In this document: positions 16,569 to 62,853 of the stretch, piece after piece
How positions within the stretch are numbered: the stretch's first letter is position 1
How the letters are laid out: the number at the start of each line of letters is the position of its first letter
Origin: Candidatus Omnitrophota bacterium
GTDB taxonomy: Bacteria; Omnitrophota; Gorgyraeia; Gygaellales; Profunditerraquicolaceae
DNA: 64,000 bases
Direction: 5' to 3'
NCBI GenBank assembly: GCA_011620275.1
Contig: WOZK01000012.1
Location: forward strand, 31,665 to 95,664
Translations under genes and position numbers: made by a program
The notes under the pieces: generated by a model
Database searches by the model: none
Told to the model about the DNA's origin: nothing
What the model saw: the letters and a program-made list of their open reading frames with translations, nothing else

Positions 16569-16641
16569 CAGGGGCGGAGGGACTTGAACCCCCAGGACAG
16601 GATTTGGAGTCCCGCCGTTTAGCCAATTAACGGACGCCCCT
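16569..16641 (-). tRNA. tRNA-Trp (anticodon CCA)
   Basis: Manual cloverleaf: AGGGGCG acceptor, anticodon loop CUCCAAA, T-arm GGTTCAAGTCC; CCA tail not encoded. Confidence 0.85.
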
Positions 16642-16789
16642 ATTTGGTCTCTTTATGCGGCGAGTGTTTCCTGCACACCCTGCAGAACTTCTTCAGTTCG
16701 AGCTTATCCTGATGCTTTTTTTTATTTTTTGTGGTGGTGTAGTTCTTATTCTTGCAGACCGTACATTCCACCGTGATTATTTCTCGCAT
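16640..16789 (-). CDS. rpmG: 50S ribosomal protein L33
   Basis: 49 aa; hand-translated [49 protein letters not shown] with a CxxC..CxxC zinc ribbon; absent from the ORF track because it is too short. Confidence 0.85.
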
Positions 16790-16841
16790 GATTTTTCGCC
16801 TGTTTTTCTCGGTACCGGTTAAACCTTACGGGAAATTTCTA

Positions 16842-16914
16842 AGCTGGAGACGGGAATTGAACCCGTGACCCCGTCCTTACCAAGGACGTGCTCTACCAAC
16901 TGAGCTACTCCAGC
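16842..16914 (-). tRNA. tRNA-Thr (anticodon GGT)
   Basis: GCTGGAGTAGCTCAGTTGGTAGAGC D-arm, anticodon loop UUGGUAA, perfect T-stem. Confidence 0.88.
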
Positions 16915-36022: not shown

Positions 36023-36219
36023 AAATACCTCCGCGTTCCTGCGGCATTAATAAAAATTAACCATTATCTTGATTAAGGTTTGTAAACTAAGGGCGTTTAC
36101 CCTAACGTCCCGCACAGCAAGACGTTATTATAACCCACCCCTTTTACCGTGTCAAACAAATAATCCCCCCCCTGGGGGCCCCCTGGGGCCGTTTCAAAAT
36201 CACCTGCGATACGGCAAAT

Positions 36220-37731
36220 TCACTGTCTGCGTATGCTGTAAAGCCCGCCAGACATTGCGTCCAGATAAGCGGTCAATTCCCGAAGTCGTATCTCTTTATC
36301 GAAACGGCGCTTCCTGTCTTCCAGTCGCATATTTGCCAGCTCATGCCGCACGCGCAAGCGTTCGAAATAAGCCTTGGTCACCTGCTCTATTATCTCCTGA
36401 CGCAATTCCGCGGTAAGCTTGGACCGCACGTCTATGGAGGTCTGGGCGTCGTTCCAGATCAAATCACCAAGTTCCCAGACCAAGGCAACCGACCACTCCT
36501 GCGTATATCTTCCTTTGCGCAAGCAATCATCCTCTTGTCTGGTAGTAGAGCCTCCCTCCCAGTGCCAGCGATCGGTGCCGTTACGATCGGCAGAGACCGA
36601 TACCCTGGGGAGCCAGCCGCGCGCCGCCGCCAGTTTCCTCCAGCGAAATATCTTTTCCTGGCCGGAATCGGTAAGCGCTATAGACGCTTCCACTACCTCC
36701 CGTATGCCCGGTTCTCCTTCTTCTTCGGCAGGAGGACGCGAATCTACGGGGTACGCAGGAGGCCCCAATACGCCGGTCTCTACGATACCGCTATCGCAGA
36801 GAAGTAAAAGCCTTCCGGGAGCCGCCACAGCTATTTCGTTTATTCTTCTAATACCGGCGGGAACGCCCGCTTCCGACCAGTACCCTATGGAGGGATAATA
36901 AACGAAAACTTCTCTCCCGTCCGTCGCATAGATCTCTCCCCCGTATCCGGCCGTGACCGCGGACAAAGGATACCGGGGCAGGCCCTGCGCGCTCAATTCT
37001 TCAAACTGCCCGTCGGAGCTCTGCGCCAGATAAATGCGTCCGCGGCAGTAAGCGCACACTCCGCCGTGCGGGAGCGCGGCGATCAGCGCGTTGCCGCTTG
37101 CCCGGGCCTCCTGCGCCGGCTCATCATCCCCGCCGCCGGGTTCATCTTCTCCCTCGGGAACAGCGCCGCAGGACAAAATCCTGTCCCAGGTATTCCCGTT
37201 ATCAAAGCTCTCGTAGATCCCGTTCGAGGCCGCCAGATAAATACCGTCTCGCGCGCCGCGGCAAAGCCGATAAACAGGCATAGACGACAACGCCCCCCCG
37301 GCCTTAACCCAGTGCCCTCCGTTATCGTCGCTAATGACCAATCCGTCCTCTCCGGCGGCAAGGACTCTGCTTCCGGAACAAAGAATCGAGAACAAACCTT
37401 TACCCCTGAACACCCGCCGCCATTCCCTGCCGCCGTCAGAGCTGCAATATACCCCGGTGGAAGAAGCGGCAAAGATAGTGCCGCCGGAGCCGGAAAATGC
37501 CCGCACCTCGCCTTTGATTCCGCGAGTCCTTCCGTAACGCTCCCAGTTCAATCCCCGGTCCTCGCTTTTCCAGACCGTATCCTTTGAACCGGACAGAAAA
37601 ACGTTACCGCCGAGAAACAGGACGCAAAAGGCGTCTTTTACCGAAACGCTGTCCTCTCCGCTTGCCTTTTTCAACGGTACAGGCGCTGAAAGGAACAGCG
37701 GCAGGAAGGCGATCACGCACCATTTACGCAT
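36220..37731 (-). CDS. secreted BNR/Ycf48-like beta-propeller repeat protein
   Basis: Signal peptide; repeated S.DGG..W / SxDxGxTW BNR-like motifs (SEDRGLNWER, SSDGGREWRR, SDDNGGHWVK, SFDNGNTWDR). Confidence 0.6.
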   Translation of the reverse strand: MRKWCVIAFLPLFLSAPVPLKKASGEDSVSVKDAFCVLFLGGNVFLSGSKDTVWKSEDRGLNWERYGRTRGIKGEVRAFSGSGGTIFAASSTGVYCSSDGGREWRRVFRGKGLFSILCSGSRVLAAGEDGLVISDDNGGHWVKAGGALSSMPVYRLCRGARDGIYLAASNGIYESFDNGNTWDRILSCGAVPEGEDEPGGGDDEPAQEARASGNALIAALPHGGVCAYCRGRIYLAQSSDGQFEELSAQGLPRYPLSAVTAGYGGEIYATDGREVFVYYPSIGYWSEAGVPAGIRRINEIAVAAPGRLLLLCDSGIVETGVLGPPAYPVDSRPPAEEEGEPGIREVVEASIALTDSGQEKIFRWRKLAAARGWLPRVSVSADRNGTDRWHWEGGSTTRQEDDCLRKGRYTQEWSVALVWELGDLIWNDAQTSIDVRSKLTAELRQEIIEQVTKAYFERLRVRHELANMRLEDRKRRFDKEIRLRELTAYLDAMSGGLYSIRRQ

Positions 37732-37897
37732 AAGACTCCTCCTTTCGTTTTAAATACACAAGTATTCTCTTTATTTAATAGACGGTGCAAGGAGGGAAAA
37801 TCTAACGGACAATTCTTAACGCCGCCTTGGGTCGGCCGATAATGGGCAAGAGTTCATCGTGCGGGCCGAAGAGAAGAGAAAAAAAACGGAGGGTTCT

Positions 37898-40003
37898 TTA
37901 TAATTCCAGTTCGCGGAATTTTTTGCGCAGGTCGTAAAAAGCCGGCATATCTATTTCTCTCAAAACGGTCTGCGCCTTACGCAGGTATTCCCTGGCCTCC
38001 TGTTTTCGCCGGGCGGATTTACAGATAAAGGCCAGATGGCAGTATGCCTCCGCCAATTCCGGCACTGCTCCGGCCTTGACGGCATTGGCTTCCGCCGTCA
38101 TAAACGAACGCTCCGCGGAAACATAGTCTCCGGTCTCCAGGTACAATTCTCCTATCATATTGTGGTCTCCGGCGATATTGGCATAATTACGCTGTTTAAT
38201 ATCCAATTTCAGCCCTTTCAAATAAAGCTCCAGAGCCCGGGGGTAATCCTTCTCCAGTAGAAAAACCTCCCCCAAATTAAAATAGCAATCGCTAAGCTCT
38301 TCCCCGGCTCCGAGACGCTCGAAAATACGCTGGCTTTTCAGGTAAAACTTTTTTGCCGCCGAATAATCGTCTTTGTTGACGAAAACAAGGCCGATATCGA
38401 AATAATCGCAGGCAAGATTGTATTTATGACGGTATATCCACTGTTTTTCCCTGTTGATATCCGAGCTCTTAGTCAATAATTCCAGGGCGGCGTCATAATT
38501 CCCTGCGTCGATCTGCCAAACCGCCATCCTGCGCAGAACCAGCGCTTCATTCAGACGGTCATGGTTTTCTCTCGCCAGCGCCAGGGACTTGCTGTAGAAC
38601 CCGGCCGCCCCGGCGTGTTTACCCTGCATCTGATATATCCAGCCGATACCGGCATAGGCGCAGGAGAGACCGCTTTGATAACCGTTCTCCGCGCATTGCT
38701 TGGCAAGCTCGTAATAACACTCCAGCGCCTCCTTGCGCCGTCCGGACTGCTCGTAAATTTCCCCCAGGAAACGGTATGCCGCCACACAACGGGGAGTTTT
38801 GTTTACGATGTCCCTGAAAACGGCAGCGGCCGCGGCATGCTCTCCGCCGCGAAACATCCTCCGGCCCTTAAGTAAAAGCAGGTAATTGCTCTCTTCTTCC
38901 TGCGCGGAGGGGCCAAAAAGAAGCACGGCTCCCGTCATCAAGGCAGCAGCCGCGGTCTTCCAGTTCCTTCGCAGACGGTTGCCTGCGATGGAGATCCGCC
39001 GCCGCTCGTAAAGCACGGTATCCGGTCTGCCGTATAACACATACCTGCTCCATGTCCCGATACGCGAAGACTGGGAATATCTGCATAAGCGCACGATTTC
39101 CGCTATGGACAGCCCGCCCCGCAGCCGGCGGTAGAACCCGGCGGCAAAATCCCTGCAGGCGGCGTCCTGCGCAGCCGCGATCGTCCCCAGGTAATGCATA
39201 GTCCCGTGCAGCAGGAAGGAACCGGCTAACGACGGCAAGCCCCGCCGCCCTGCCGCAGAAACGCAGGCATTAGCGAAAACAAACGAAGGAAGAGCTGAAA
39301 CCCCGGCGGCCTGCATGACGTCTTCGGCGCCGAATATCCCGTCGTTGAGCACCCATCCCCCTTTTACCCCCGGCAGGCAATGCCCGGCGAAGTGGATCAT
39401 ATCGTAGCGTCCAAGGGCCTCGCGCAGGAACATCTTGCCGGCGGGAAAAGACCTGAAATCAACGCTTATGCCCGGCAGGCGCGACAGGATACCTTTTATT
39501 TCCAACCCTTCCGCATAGGCGTAAGGCAATCCTCCTGCGGGGTCGGCGAGTACGAGCGCTCTCGCCGGAAACGGCGGTCTCTCTCTGCGGACGTAATCTT
39601 TTTCCCCACGGTAACGCAGTATCCTCGAACAGGCAAACCTGCGGCAGAGAAAATCAGTCCCGTCATAAGCGAGTTCCCACGGCACCTCGACAAGCCGTTC
39701 GTCGAGCAGTATCAAAAGGGTTCTCCGTCCGCTCCCGGAAAGGATTTCCCTGACCCGTGACGGAAATACGGATTTCCATAACAACCGGCCGGAGGAAATC
39801 ATCTCCCGTGCGCCGTCTTCTCCCGGAATATATAAACCGCGGGTAGAAGAAAAGAAAGGGAACCTGCCGCATAGAGAATTCAGTTCCTCGGCGGGGAAAC
39901 CGCAGCGCAGGTGGCGTCTGACCGGAGAGCACTCCATATCTTTTCGATCGAAAACGCCGAGAAATATCTCCCCGTCTTCCAGTAAGATCTCTGCTATCAG
40001 CAA
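37898..40003 (-). CDS. CHAT-domain (caspase-like) protein with one TM helix and C-terminal TPR repeats
   Basis: 701 aa; CHAT His/Cys dyad motifs MIHFAGHC and VFANACVSA; hydrophobic segment TAAAALMTGAVLLFGP; at least 6 TPR-like repeats in the C-terminal ~320 aa. Confidence 0.65.
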   Translation of the reverse strand: MLIAEILLEDGEIFLGVFDRKDMECSPVRRHLRCGFPAEELNSLCGRFPFFSSTRGLYIPGEDGAREMISSGRLLWKSVFPSRVREILSGSGRRTLLILLDERLVEVPWELAYDGTDFLCRRFACSRILRYRGEKDYVRRERPPFPARALVLADPAGGLPYAYAEGLEIKGILSRLPGISVDFRSFPAGKMFLREALGRYDMIHFAGHCLPGVKGGWVLNDGIFGAEDVMQAAGVSALPSFVFANACVSAAGRRGLPSLAGSFLLHGTMHYLGTIAAAQDAACRDFAAGFYRRLRGGLSIAEIVRLCRYSQSSRIGTWSRYVLYGRPDTVLYERRRISIAGNRLRRNWKTAAAALMTGAVLLFGPSAQEEESNYLLLLKGRRMFRGGEHAAAAAVFRDIVNKTPRCVAAYRFLGEIYEQSGRRKEALECYYELAKQCAENGYQSGLSCAYAGIGWIYQMQGKHAGAAGFYSKSLALARENHDRLNEALVLRRMAVWQIDAGNYDAALELLTKSSDINREKQWIYRHKYNLACDYFDIGLVFVNKDDYSAAKKFYLKSQRIFERLGAGEELSDCYFNLGEVFLLEKDYPRALELYLKGLKLDIKQRNYANIAGDHNMIGELYLETGDYVSAERSFMTAEANAVKAGAVPELAEAYCHLAFICKSARRKQEAREYLRKAQTVLREIDMPAFYDLRKKFRELEL

Positions 40004-40012
40004 CGCCCCACC

Positions 40013-40690
40013 TTAACCTTTAAAAAGCAGCCTCACCGCCGCCAGCCTTACGCCCTCCGGAGACGATATCTCCAGGAGATAATCTCCCACCGGAACGCAA
40101 TCGAACCCTCCCACTCCTGCCGAAAGGACTTTAGATTCATATTCTCGCCCTCGGCAGAAGAGCGACGCCCGAATATCCCCGGGCGGTAGACTCCCGTGTA
40201 TCCCGCACCGGAGAGAAAAAAAACCGCCGGAACAGCCGGAAACCGTTATTTCAAACCTCAAGCTGTCCCGGACGCTTCTCAACACTGCTTTACCCGTTCC
40301 CTGCGGCCGTCTTCCTCTGGCGAGCCCCTCCAGCGCGTATCTCCTGGCAGATAATCCCCCGGACGCGCGCAAAAAACGGAAAATCCCATCTTTCCAGGAG
40401 AATTCGGCCTCGGGAAGCGCCGCTCCGGAAAAGAGCCCCTTCAACTCGGCTTTTCTTTCCTCTCCTAAAATAGGAGAGGAAAAGTCCTCTTCCGTTGCCG
40501 CGACGGAAACGATCTCCGCGCACCTGCCGCAGTCCAGAATATGCTCCTTTACGTAAGCCTCTTCCGGCTCCGTTAGCCTGCCCTCAAGAAAACAAACCAG
40601 AGTCTCTTCGTCCGGATGCTTGACAGGCATTACTCCGCGCGAAGCCTTCCACCGTTTATAAACTTTTTTTATTAATTGCCGCTCATCCAT
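40013..40690 (-). CDS. zinc-finger (zf-HC2 type) anti-sigma factor
   Basis: N-terminal HILDCGRCAEI H-x3-C-x2-C motif; start at MDERQ (ATG at 40688-40690) 4 nt after the ECF sigma stop; the rest of the ORF-track N-terminus is probably untranslated. Confidence 0.6.
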   Translation of the reverse strand: MDERQLIKKVYKRWKASRGVMPVKHPDEETLVCFLEGRLTEPEEAYVKEHILDCGRCAEIVSVAATEEDFSSPILGEERKAELKGLFSGAALPEAEFSWKDGIFRFLRASGGLSARRYALEGLARGRRPQGTGKAVLRSVRDSLRFEITVSGCSGGFFSLRCGIHGSLPPGDIRASLFCRGREYESKVLSAGVGGFDCVPVGDYLLEISSPEGVRLAAVRLLFKG

Positions 40691-40694
40691 CCTC

Positions 40695-41309
40695 TCACCC
40701 GTCCTTCCGGTCCGCGGCGAGGTCATAACCCCTGCTACGGAAACATTCGCGCAGCCTGCCGAGCACCCGTTTCCTGCGCATATCCACGGCCCCTCTCGAA
40801 CTGCGCAGCAGTTTCTGTAGATGCCCGAGGCGCAGGCCGCGTGCGAAATACAATTCCATAAAATACTTGTCCTCAAGACCAAGTCTTTCTATACAGCTTT
40901 TGAGATGATCTACCATTTCGCTCTCCTGCGCGGAACCCGCGGCGTCCGCCACCGCGTTACCTTGCGTAAAACAATATTCAACTTCCGGGGTCTCCTCCTC
41001 CTGATAAAAATGATGAACTCTGCGCGCGCGGTCTATGGTGGCGTTAAGCGCCACCTGGCGCAGCCAGCTTGCCAGGCTGCAGCCGTTTCTGGCCTGAAAA
41101 GTGCGAAGCTTACGGAAATCGTCTTTCAGCAAAGAAAGGAATATTTCCTGAAGTATATCCTGGGGATTGATCTCGGAAGCGGAAGCGCCTCTGGCCTTCA
41201 AGGCGTTATGGACGAAACTGAAGATAAGCTGGGAATACCTGTCTACGAATTCGCTCCAGGCCGCCTTGTCGCCCATGACGCAGCGCCGGATGAAATCCAT
41301 ATCATCCAT
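40695..41309 (-). CDS. ECF-family RNA polymerase sigma factor (sigma-70 regions 2 and 4)
   Basis: 204 aa; region 2 FVDRYSQLIFSFVH..DILQEIF and region 4 HTH near the C-terminus. Confidence 0.85.
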   Translation of the reverse strand: MDDMDFIRRCVMGDKAAWSEFVDRYSQLIFSFVHNALKARGASASEINPQDILQEIFLSLLKDDFRKLRTFQARNGCSLASWLRQVALNATIDRARRVHHFYQEEETPEVEYCFTQGNAVADAAGSAQESEMVDHLKSCIERLGLEDKYFMELYFARGLRLGHLQKLLRSSRGAVDMRRKRVLGRLRECFRSRGYDLAADRKDG

Positions 41310-41322
41310 ACGGGTATTTTGT

Positions 41323-41700
41323 CTACTTTGATTTGAATTCCCCGGTCCGAAAGTCGAGCGAAAGGATGTAAGGTATCTTAGACTGGGGTTCTCTGCCGCC
41401 CTTTGTGCATCTCTCGGCCACGCCTCTCTGGCCCTCGGAAGAAAGATAATAGCGGAAATAATGAGTCGGGACGCATTTTTCCGGAGCGATCACATCGAGC
41501 TCTTTAACCGACTGCGCGCTCTCTCCGGTGAACATGCTGAGCGCCTGCTGCGCGTTGCGCAGCTGCCCAAGCACGTAACGAGCCTCCGCGACGCGTGATT
41601 TCTCTATGATGTCCCTTAAAGCGGCGAAACCCATGAACAAAAGGGCCAGGATGATCAGGATGGTGATAATGAGTTCGAGAAAAGAAAAACCCAATTTCAT
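41323..41700 (-). CDS. type IV pilin-like/pseudopilin protein with prepilin-type N-terminal cleavage/methylation domain
   Basis: MKLG|FSFLELIITILII: Gly at -1, Phe at +1, Glu at +5, followed by a hydrophobic helix. Confidence 0.75.
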   Translation of the reverse strand: MKLGFSFLELIITILIILALLFMGFAALRDIIEKSRVAEARYVLGQLRNAQQALSMFTGESAQSVKELDVIAPEKCVPTHYFRYYLSSEGQRGVAERCTKGGREPQSKIPYILSLDFRTGEFKSK

Positions 41701-41740
41701 AATATATTATTTTAGTAGCTTATGGGGAAATGGCAAGCAG

Positions 41741-61696: not shown

Positions 61697-61767
61697 AGCG
61701 AGAGAGGGGAATCGAACCCCCGTATATAGCTTGGAAGGCTATTGTTCTACCATTGAACTACTCTCGC
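61697..61767 (-). tRNA. tRNA-Gly (anticodon TCC)
   Basis: GCGAGAGTAGTTCAATGGTAGAAC..anticodon loop CUUCCAA..GGGGGTTCGATTCCCCT..CTCTCGC. Confidence 0.85.
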
Positions 61768-61856
61768 AAATAATGCGTCTTTAAGGTGCTTGTCCCGCCT
61801 CCTATACAACTACTCTTTGAGACGGGATTTCGTTCAGCCTTCGGCCGAACTCAAGA

Positions 61857-61888
61857 AGGTTATTGTTCTACCATTGAACTACTCTCGC
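61857..61888 (-). pseudogene. partial tRNA-Gly copy (5' half only)
   Basis: 31 of 32 nt identical to the 5' half (acceptor and D-arm) of the intact tRNA-Gly; diverges at the anticodon loop into a GTTCGGCC-GAAG-GCTGAAC hairpin. Confidence 0.65.
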
Positions 61889-61973
61889 GAATCGCATCAA
61901 TCTGCAAAACTATCCTGCTCATTATATCTAATTTCGCAGGATTTCATTCTATACTTTTCTTGTTGAATTTAAA

Positions 61974-62056
61974 TGGGCAGAGTAGGATTCGAACCTACGT
62001 AGCACGAGTGCAACAGATTTACAGTCTGTCCCCTTTAGCCACTTGGGTATCTGCCC
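61974..62056 (-). tRNA. tRNA-Tyr (anticodon GTA)
   Basis: GGGCAGATACCCAAGTGGCTAAAGGGG, anticodon loop ACUGUAAAUC region, long variable arm, T-arm GGTTCGAATCC. Confidence 0.85.
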
Positions 62057-62240
62057 GCGTTATGCGCTGCTAAATTAATATAACAGCGCACAGAGCAATC
62101 GAGAAGCGAAATTTGAAAGTTGAGCGGCATCGAGATTGCGGTCTGATCTCTAATTCCGATTTTCAAATATAAGAAAGATGAATTTTATCTAATCCCTCGT
62201 GCTTCATCCTTCGTTATACCGCGGTATAGTCAAATAACAA

Positions 62241-62315
62241 TCGGGGCGACAGGACTTGAACCTGTGACCTCTTGAACCCCATTCAAGCGCTCTAGCCAAG
62301 CTGAGCCACGCCCCG
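62241..62315 (-). tRNA. tRNA-Pro (anticodon GGG)
   Basis: C1:G72 acceptor pair typical of tRNA-Pro; anticodon loop AUGGGGU; T-arm GGTTCAAGTCC. Confidence 0.8.
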
Positions 62316-62560
62316 TAATCTTTTATCCAGGAAGCCTCGCCAATGCTTTTATGACGGACCCCGTAAATCTATTATCCCGGCCTGGGAAAGCACTTCCCCT
62401 GCCGCTTTTTCGCTGAAAAAATCTGTTGGTTTATTCGTAGAGTAATGAAGCTCACTGGGCTAAAACCAGGAGTTTTCTACCACTTTAGCGAAATTTCTCC
62501 GAAGCAGCCCCCCCCTCTTTGCGCAGCGATACCTTCCAGTTTATCCTACGCATTCATCTT

Positions 62561-62607
62561 CGCACAAGCGAATACTTGGCCTTCCTATTGGCCAAGGTAT
62601 AACCAAG
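62561..62607. repeat. isolated copy of the 42-bp hairpin repeat family seen at 34727-34860
   Basis: CGCACAAGCGAATACTTGGCCTTCCTATTGGCCAAGGTATAACC: the tail of one unit plus the head of the next. Confidence 0.7.
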
Positions 62608-62780
62608 CTTGAAAACTTAGGGGTTTTTGCGTAGGAGAATAAATATACCAGAACTTTCCAAGGGTGTAAAGAAAGATTTTGCGGATATGTGCGGATAGAC
62701 AGTTAGAAACGAGGAATTATCATATAATTAAGTATTGTGTCCCCGGAATGCGAAATGCAGAACCCGTTTTAAAAGAAAAA

Positions 62781-62853
62781 AGCCGGCGAGAGGAATCGAA
62801 CCCCCGACCCGCTGTTTACAAAACAGCTGCTCTACCAACTGAGCTACGCCGGC
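62781..62853 (-). tRNA. tRNA-Thr (anticodon TGT)
   Basis: GCCGGCGTAGCTCAGTTGGTAGAGC, anticodon loop UUUGUAA; T-stem contains two G-U pairs. Confidence 0.72.

Follow-up and report, generated by a model that had tools for sequence, protein, structure and literature searches.

A CHAT-TM-TPR protein encoded next to an ECF sigma factor and a predicted soluble anti-sigma factor in Candidatus Omnitrophota, and a candidate route for protease-controlled release of the sigma factor

The stretch of DNA analysed here (the window) comprises 64,000 nucleotides (nt) of contig WOZK01000012.1 from a Candidatus Omnitrophota bacterium, and the gene under study, on its minus strand, encodes a protein of 701 amino acids (aa) that combines an N-terminal CHAT domain of the caspase-like clan CD, a probable transmembrane (TM) helix and a C-terminal array of tetratricopeptide repeats (TPR). 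In a module that is conserved throughout Candidatus Omnitrophota and also outside this phylum it stands third, the other two genes encoding a sigma factor of the extracytoplasmic function (ECF) type and a zinc-finger protein predicted to be its anti-sigma factor. The features on which the argument depends are listed below, each with the sources of its assignment.

37898-40003, minus strand: gene of the CHAT-TM-TPR protein, 701 aa (open reading frame, Pfam, orthologs, AlphaFold).
39014-40003, minus strand: CHAT domain, aa 1-330, predicted to be cytoplasmic (Pfam, AlphaFold, alignment of 234 sequences).
39380-39382, minus strand: codon of the putative catalytic residue His208.
39263-39265, minus strand: codon of the putative catalytic residue Cys247.
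38903-38962, minus strand: probable single TM helix, aa 348-367, WKTAAAALMTGAVLLFGPSA (orthologs at the same position, AlphaFold).
37901-38896, minus strand: TPR array, aa 370-701, about eight repeats with 17 helices, predicted to be periplasmic (Pfam, AlphaFold, Foldseek).
40013-40690, minus strand: gene of the putative soluble zinc-finger (ZAS-like) anti-sigma factor, 225 aa, starting MDERQL (zf-HC2, motif, synteny).
40695-41309, minus strand: gene of the ECF-type sigma factor, 204 aa (TIGR02937, Pfam Sigma70_r2, synteny).

Comparison with other genomes confirms that the open reading frame of the CHAT-TM-TPR protein is real and not a product of chance, because relatives are encoded at 529 loci of a species-level collection (one genome per species), and the best 80 of these carry full-length orthologs with 35-96% identity, almost all of them in metagenome-assembled genomes (MAGs) of Candidatus Omnitrophota. 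Translation begins at a TTG codon preceded by AAGGTGGGG, a good Shine-Dalgarno sequence, and the orthologs start at the same residue. The size of the family depends on how it is searched: a word-indexed search returned only five close relatives, while an exhaustive, profile-free search with aa 1-387 returned 4057 at E ≤ 1e-3 and 285 at E ≤ 1e-30. In public records these relatives go under no other names than "CHAT domain-containing protein" and "tetratricopeptide repeat protein", and none of them is called HetF. The window protein is 96% identical to that of the Omnitrophota MAG JBAZDY010000082 and 90% identical to that of 'Candidatus Undivivens industriae', and this one lineage carries various public labels (Elusimicrobia, Omnitrophota, Planctomycetales, Margulisiibacteriota, Patescibacteria).

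The CHAT assignment is given by Pfam (PF12770, aa 71-325; E 1.3e-19, 71.2 bits against a cut-off of 24), with a match that extends over profile positions 3-288 of 289. Within the domain, the motif MIHFAGHC contributes His204 and His208, and the motif FVFANACVSA contributes Cys247. In an alignment of 234 sequences (the window protein, 84 orthologs and 149 diverse representatives), His204, Gly207, His208 and Cys247 are unchanged in every one. R127, E165 and G267 are also invariant in this set, and PWE108-110 and D280 nearly so, which places three acidic or polar residues (E110, E165 and D280) among the invariant or nearly invariant positions. The invariance of the His208-Cys247 dyad argues for catalysis, and the protein is a putative protease. 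A first-pass annotation, made from the letters of this DNA, had described CHAT motifs at the N-terminus followed by a hydrophobic stretch and TPR repeats, an apparently intact dyad and no signal peptide, and all of this is borne out; the spacing of about 50 residues that it gave for the His and the Cys measures 39.

The predicted structure agrees with this assignment. The AlphaFold model, built with 19 diverse orthologs, has a mean predicted local distance difference test (pLDDT) score of 83.5; with six close sequences the CHAT half fell below 40 and was unusable. In the better model the CHAT domain (pLDDT 85-92) shows alternating beta and alpha elements, with His208 just after the strand formed by residues 202-206 and Cys247 at the end of strand 241-248, and this modelled placement of the two residues at strand ends is that of caspase-fold enzymes. 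A signal peptide was rejected, because the N-terminus is modelled with confidence (pLDDT about 90) as a beta-hairpin belonging to the CHAT domain. A search of the PDB with the CHAT domain as a single sequence returned nothing relevant and a profile search was needed: the family profile gave weak matches to the CHAT proteins 8tl0_A (E 0.002) and 8rot_B (E 0.05), the latter being the 991-aa chain of DdvA, and aligned its HfaGH and naC motifs to the His and Cys of 3bij_A, a caspase-like protein. The full model, searched with Foldseek, matched Csx29 (8eex_B, E 5e-9) and human separase (E 1e-8).

The C-terminal half is a TPR array. TPR_12 (E 3.4e-29) and many other TPR models of Pfam span aa 378-685, the AlphaFold model is confident here as well (pLDDT 85-95), and Foldseek matched the TPR superhelices of LGN, CTPR and OGT at E 1e-12. 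The array contains a family-invariant motif, YNLACDYFD (aa 528-536), of which N529, L530, A531 and Y534 do not vary.

Between the two domains lies the probable TM helix, which by hydrophobicity alone is marginal in the window protein. Its 19-residue Kyte-Doolittle mean (KD19) is 1.21, a simple sum on the Hessa scale gives about +6 kcal/mol, and it is only the third most hydrophobic segment of the protein, below a strand of the CHAT core; RRRISIAGNRLRRN precedes it and EEE follows it. The comparison with relatives is more informative. Among the orthologs, 75 of 84 have a TM segment at the same position with KD19 > 1.6 (the median is 2.32), and those with a strong segment have on average 5.8 Lys and Arg in the 15 residues before the helix against 1.6 after it. 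Of the best 149 remote relatives, 128 have a segment that reaches KD19 ≥ 1.6 in the 130 residues next to the CHAT domain on its C-terminal side. The domains that follow this segment in remote relatives are of periplasmic or surface type (CsgG-like in 29 of 65, with LpoB-like, DUF4384, FlgT_C, discoidin and TPR domains besides), while an adenylate/guanylate cyclase domain stands N-terminal to CHAT in 13 of 65; since such cyclase fusions must be cytoplasmic, the CHAT side is placed inside. It is therefore very likely that the helix spans the membrane in the family as a whole, and the positive-inside asymmetry of basic residues, the nature of the domains after the helix and the N-terminal cyclase fusions together support an N-in topology, with CHAT in the cytoplasm and the TPR array outside. 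This had been the proposal of the first-pass annotation, which also called the arrangement unusual; that word is not justified, because HetF, the founding CHAT protein, is itself laid out as CHAT-TM-periplasmic TPR, and the CHAT-TM-X layout is common to thousands of relatives.

Having discussed the protein, it is necessary to consider the genes that accompany it. The product of 40695-41309 belongs, as judged by its profile match, to the ECF (group IV) sigma-70 family: TIGR02937 (sigma70-ECF) covers aa 17-189 of its 204 residues (E 4.9e-14, 52.3 bits against a cut-off of 42.9). The main text of the ECF reclassification paper does not mention CHAT. The product of 40013-40690 is predicted to act as an anti-sigma factor that inhibits this cognate sigma factor. 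Its N-terminal domain of the form H-x24-H-x3-C-x2-C provides the zinc ligands H25 and H50-x3-C54-x2-C57, the family alignment shows the full set H/C-x24-H-x3-C-x2-C, and HxxxCxxC occurs at about residue 52 in 81 of 82 orthologs. The match of the window protein to zf-HC2 (19.1 bits, E 0.0015) lies under the Pfam cut-off of 22.2, and the same model matches 27 of 30 family members at E ≤ 0.05, the best at 6.6e-6. A linker follows, which in most orthologs contains PAPvLRSR and of which one Arg, R125 in the window protein, hardly varies, and the C-terminus is a conserved, beta-sandwich-like domain. No genuine TM segment with KD19 ≥ 1.6 was found in the 82 orthologs, the two nominal ones being an artefact of a run of N and the zinc motif.

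The three genes are tightly spaced, with the anti-sigma gene starting 4 nt past the sigma stop codon and ending 9 nt before the CHAT start codon. On the minus strand the order is pilin-like gene, sigma, anti-sigma, CHAT, a 166-nt spacer, a gene for a BNR-propeller protein, recA, recX and alaS, and the neighbours within about 8 kb include UvrB, pantothenate kinase, H+-PPase, recA, recX and alaS. The order sigma, anti-sigma, CHAT-TM-TPR is kept at essentially all of the 80 genome loci, even where the proteins are only 35-40% identical; an H+-PPase gene is often found upstream, and the propeller gene usually downstream at a varying distance. The association extends to distant CHAT relatives, in which a homologous zinc-finger gene of 206-244 aa lies immediately upstream in 7 of 10 cases, its codons often overlapping those of the CHAT gene, although the outside domains of these seven CHAT proteins vary (TPR, CsgG-like, DUF4384, discoidin). 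An orthologous sigma gene, detected with a profile built from Omnitrophota sequences only, adjoins the anti-sigma-like gene at five of the seven, and at two loci (L089 and L090) the anti-sigma-like gene stands beside the CHAT gene with no sigma gene adjacent. A CHAT protein linked to a defence island or to CRISPR was considered and rejected, given the synteny with H+-PPase, recA, recX and alaS and the vertical inheritance across the phylum; no cas genes occur among the neighbours within about 8 kb of the CHAT gene.

Some further features of these neighbourhoods were observed. Only the clade to which the window belongs (the window clade) has the pilin-like gene (41323-41700, minus strand; prepilin-type N-terminus GFSFLELIITI...) inserted between those for the H+-PPase and the sigma factor. 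At the distant loci L088-L094 the neighbours include CsgG/Glucodextran_B-like proteins, outer-membrane channels of the FadL/Toluene_X type, FecR-like proteins and BNR proteins, which suggests a broader gene neighbourhood for monitoring the envelope, and some of the CHAT proteins there carry an N-terminal nucleotide cyclase. Upstream of recA, at 36127-36155 (minus strand), is a perfect sigma-70 consensus promoter (TTGACA-17-TATAAT, 12 of 12 positions), and elsewhere in the window there are two tRNA clusters, at 16569-16914 and 61697-62853 (minus strand), with two and four tRNAs, respectively.

The DNA between the genes indicates what the sigma factor may regulate. The features concerned are as follows.

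36220-37731, minus strand: gene of a secreted BNR/Asp-box beta-propeller protein, 503 aa, with an N-terminal signal-like sequence (NF045728, synteny).
37771-37810, minus strand: predicted ECF-type promoter GTTAGATT-N14-CGTCTATTA, 45-75 nt upstream of the propeller start codon.
41709-41736, minus strand: candidate housekeeping (sigma-70 type) promoter TTGCCA-16-TAAAAT upstream of the pilin-like gene, agreeing with the consensus at 10 of 12 positions.

At nearly all orthologous loci the propeller gene is preceded by a conserved bipartite motif, TTTTnnGTTAGATTTT-N11-CGTCTATTA. The window contains a single site of this kind: it has a position weight matrix score of 32.1, nothing else in the 64 kb exceeds 10 and the maximum after shuffling is 5.9, while the exact pattern occurs once against an expectation of 0.27. 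At most Omnitrophota loci the anti-sigma gene is immediately preceded by a second copy, which overlaps with the sigma gene at its 3' end; the same two-site layout is found at the distant locus L086, and L092 has one site after the CHAT gene. From this distribution, the sigma factor may be supposed to recognise GTTAGATT-N13/14-CGTCTA promoters, and the propeller gene is its predicted target and the constant member of its regulon. The propeller protein matches NF045728 (E 1.6e-12), with matches to Sortilin-Vps10 and BNR models of Pfam below the cut-off. Its C-terminal 164 aa matched no Pfam family; this region of about 160 aa (36220-36710, minus strand), which follows a Pro/Glu-rich linker, is conserved and predicted to be helical, and might serve in oligomerisation or in association with the outer membrane.

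An autoregulated promoter of the sigma gene was looked for and rejected: none lies upstream of it, and most lineages have a housekeeping extended -10 element there. At loci L011-L085 this strongly conserved element, TGnTATAAT, stands 8-12 nt before the sigma ATG (e.g. L011:3600-3632), which implies a housekeeping promoter and a leaderless or near-leaderless mRNA. The window clade does not have it, and there the candidate at 41709-41736 may, on weak grounds, drive a transcript of the pilin-like, sigma, anti-sigma and CHAT genes. The predicted circuit is one in which the sigma factor is made constitutively, and the propeller gene and, in most lineages, the anti-sigma and CHAT genes depend on it.

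Two kinds of non-coding element were noticed at related loci. One is an insert of 60-100 nt in the 5' untranslated region (UTR) of the propeller gene, between the ECF-type promoter and the ribosome-binding site (L013:7431-7540, L050:7763-7880 and L062:7253-7320; also in L033, L051, L052, L028, L044 and L057, and not in the window). The arms of its hairpin covary between loci (GGACATGAGTTATG/CATAACTCATATGTCC, GGCACAAGTTATG/CATAACTTGTATGCC and GCGCACAACTTACG/CGTAAGGTGTATGCGC), and it may be an unclassified cis-regulatory RNA; Rfam gave no known RNA family in these inserts or at the CHAT region. The other consists of palindromes, GGGGACGGTTCTATTTT...AAAATAGAACCGTCCCC or GGGACACCCTT...AAGGGTGTCCC, upstream of the sigma gene at many loci (e.g. 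L032, L053, L056 and L082), which recur across unrelated Omnitrophota MAGs and could be terminators or a repeat family of the REP type.

The proposal that we derive from these observations is that a HetF-like CHAT cysteine protease, anchored by one helix in the inner membrane, frees the sigma factor by cutting its soluble anti-sigma factor. The periplasmic TPR domain would sense an envelope-related cue, possibly with the participation of the neighbouring secreted propeller protein, and the signal would pass through the TM helix or through oligomerisation to activate the cytoplasmic CHAT domain. The latter would cut the anti-sigma factor, which, because it has no membrane segment, cannot sense outside signals by itself; the likeliest site would be the conserved linker, at the near-invariant Arg. 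The freed sigma factor would then direct RNA polymerase to its promoters, of which the only one in the window would drive the propeller gene, whereas in most other lineages the second copy would drive the anti-sigma and CHAT genes as feedback. The architecture of the protein and the linkage of the genes are much firmer than this mechanism, whose steps rest on gene linkage and analogy; from these we infer the proteolytic activity, the substrate, the cleavage site, the nature of the signal and the recognition of the promoter by the sigma factor, and the complete mechanism seems to us evenly balanced between being right and being wrong. A broader formulation, that this is a widespread, one-step form of ECF signalling in which a transmembrane caspase-family protease with an exchangeable outside domain cuts a soluble zinc-finger anti-sigma factor in the cytoplasm with no intramembrane proteolysis, phylum-wide in Omnitrophota and beside core genes, with GTTAGATT-N13-CGTCTA as target promoter and the propeller as constant regulon member, is offered more tentatively, as possible rather than probable.

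Several observations weigh against the proposal. In the Foldseek search the matches to Csx29 and separase rank under many TPR proteins, and its output does not give the region that they align to. Three of the ten distant relatives, more remote ones (P0184, P0192 and P0205), have neither sigma nor anti-sigma neighbours. The window clade departs from the rest of the family: its anti-sigma linker has diverged (LARGRRP), it has no feedback promoter before the anti-sigma gene, and its TM helix is weak and followed by no WLPTxNP motif. Zinc-binding anti-sigma factors, moreover, are able to answer redox stress alone. Finally, contact between CHAT and the anti-sigma factor, and cleavage of the one by the other, are inferred, and the linkage could equally mean that the CHAT protein is an output of the sigma factor.

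This last idea is the rival that survives best, and we consider it unlikely. It holds that the CHAT-TM-TPR protein is a HetF-like protease of the envelope or of division, made, together with the propeller protein, under the control of the sigma factor and acting on another cytoplasmic substrate, as HetF acts on PatU3, while the anti-sigma factor responds, for example, to oxidation of the thiols in its zinc site, for which it retains the complete H/C-H-C-C set of ligands. The ECF-type promoter found upstream of the anti-sigma and CHAT genes in most lineages would make the CHAT gene sigma-dependent, the LpoB- and CsgG-like periplasmic domains of relatives point to envelope functions, and HetF, with the same architecture, acts on a substrate at the division site that is not a sigma regulator (PMC8406250, PMC9457339). 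What this reading does not lead one to expect is so tight a co-variation with the anti-sigma gene: the pairing of the two genes, often with overlapping codons, survives changes of the sensor domain and persists even at the two loci with no adjacent sigma gene.

A second alternative concerns the window clade and is, in our estimation, quite unlikely. The first-pass annotation had itself allowed for a helix that does not cross the membrane. It supposes that the helix no longer spans the membrane in this clade, so that the protein would be a soluble, cytoplasmic CHAT-TPR protein whose TPR array binds the substrate or a cytoplasmic ligand. The nine orthologs with no strong TM segment are exactly the members of this clade; all nine have KD19 values of 1.1-1.5 against a median of 2.3 elsewhere, their helix is rich in Ala and shorter by 4-5 residues, and the WLPTxNP motif, conserved after the helix in the other orthologs, has been lost. 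The G+C content of the clade, however, is 0.53-0.60 against a median of 0.43, and a high value by itself gives such a shift from Ile, Leu and Phe to Ala; the helix still has Arg/Lys-rich sequence on its N-terminal side and acidic residues on the other, and substitutions within the clade remain hydrophobic. AlphaFold, in addition, leaves helix 334-362 isolated and with low confidence between two confident domains, packed against neither. The helix of the window protein probably spans the membrane, as in the rest of the family.

Quite unlikely as well, finally, is a non-catalytic or autoproteolytic membrane tether (a co-anti-sigma factor) that would hold the anti-sigma/sigma pair through the C-terminal beta-sandwich of the anti-sigma factor and release it by self-cleavage or conformational change, for although DdvA has been proposed to cleave itself in trans (PMC11506125) and the conserved C-terminal domain could be a docking module, the invariance of the dyad speaks for catalysis, the juxtamembrane linker is poorly conserved and no conserved candidate motif for self-cleavage was seen in it.

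For bacteria, ECF sigma factors are one of the principal means of reporting on the envelope. To our knowledge, the ways in which they are released are few: regulated intramembrane proteolysis (RIP), partner switching, phosphorylation, C-terminal extensions and CRISPR-linked proteases. If the preferred reading, cleavage of the anti-sigma factor by the CHAT protease, is true, the cutting of a soluble anti-sigma factor by a caspase-like protease anchored in the membrane adds another mode to them, and, following HetF and the CRISPR-linked enzymes, bacterial CHAT proteases acquire a second defined role in physiology. The same reading would account for a gene trio kept across a whole phylum that has not been cultivated, and found in thousands of proteins from metagenomes. 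The switch it describes, in which a protease gates transcription, would be a compact one whose sensor domains can be exchanged. A direct test of the prediction is possible, as the components are small, the conserved Arg is a candidate cleavage site, and the catalytic Cys and the target promoter are defined.

Different CHAT proteins and sigma factor pathways can be compared with this module. The closest in architecture is HetF (Alr3546) of Anabaena sp. PCC 7120, in which the catalytic Cys is required and PatU3, a specific cytoplasmic regulator, is cut after Arg117, before a Ser (PMC8406250, PMC9457339). The window protein agrees with the published layout of HetF in having its CHAT domain at the N-terminus and its TPR array at the C-terminus, and probably also in the single TM segment between them and the periplasmic position of the array; the conserved Arg-Ser of the anti-sigma linker in most orthologs also resembles the cleavage site of PatU3. 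HetF differs in having a far longer CHAT region (aa 1-555) and a known substrate that regulates cell division and heterocysts, and hetF has not been reported beside a sigma/anti-sigma pair.

In Myxococcus xanthus, the DdvA-DdvS system joins an ECF sigma factor, a zinc (CHCC) anti-sigma domain, a TM segment, TPR and a His-Cys CHAT domain in one signalling unit, with the zinc anti-sigma domain fused to a periplasmic TPR-CHAT region (PMC11506125). DdvA is thus a single chain, anti-sigma domain-TM-TPR-CHAT, whose CHAT domain is periplasmic, whereas here a separate soluble anti-sigma factor accompanies a CHAT-TM-TPR protein with a CHAT domain predicted to be cytoplasmic; furthermore, DdvA controls a CBASS/CRISPR defence island, and the present module lies among housekeeping genes (H+-PPase, recA, alaS). 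A DdvA-type system was therefore rejected, the anti-sigma factor being encoded by a separate gene with no TM segment and the CHAT domain being N-terminal, on the K/R-rich, cytoplasmic side.

Craspase (Cas7-11/gRAMP-Csx29, with Csx30 and CASP-sigma, of type III-E CRISPR) offers a likeness in mechanism, since the CHAT protease Csx29 cuts Csx30, the inhibitor of an ECF sigma factor (PMC10028731), and in both cases a cytoplasmic CHAT domain would cut a soluble inhibitor of an ECF sigma factor. Csx29, in contrast, is soluble, has its TPR before its CHAT domain and is activated by RNA-guided binding of a target, and Csx30 is not a zf-HC2 protein. With the domain order reversed, a probable TM segment present and no cas genes among the near neighbours, a Csx29-type system was rejected. 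In the CalpL-CalpT-CalpS system of type III CRISPR, a signal-activated, cytoplasmic SAVED-Lon protease reportedly cuts a soluble anti-sigma factor and frees an ECF sigma factor; CalpL is said to be a Lon-type protease that responds to cyclic oligoadenylate, with no membrane or periplasmic sensor.

The RseA pathway (DegS and RseP; RIP) converts an outside signal into the proteolytic destruction of an anti-sigma factor, as is proposed here. RseA itself spans the membrane and is cut first in the periplasm and then in the membrane, whereas the anti-sigma factor of the module has no TM segment and the protease domain is placed in the cytoplasm; as no real TM segment was found in the 82 anti-sigma orthologs, an RseA-like pathway was rejected. 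A review has also described CHAT genes near ECF54 sigma factors with no anti-sigma factors (PMC8999054).

The literature searched contained no description of a module of sigma factor, soluble zinc-finger anti-sigma factor and CHAT-TM-sensor protein, or of its promoter. None of the HetF, Csx29, DdvA and ECF54 cases has the split layout seen here, in which the anti-sigma factor is soluble and the CHAT domain is predicted to lie in the cytoplasm. The CHAT-TM-TPR protein alone is of an already known kind, with the architecture of HetF, and the conserved three-gene module with its promoter would be, if the proposed cleavage is true, a further variant of protease-controlled ECF signalling.

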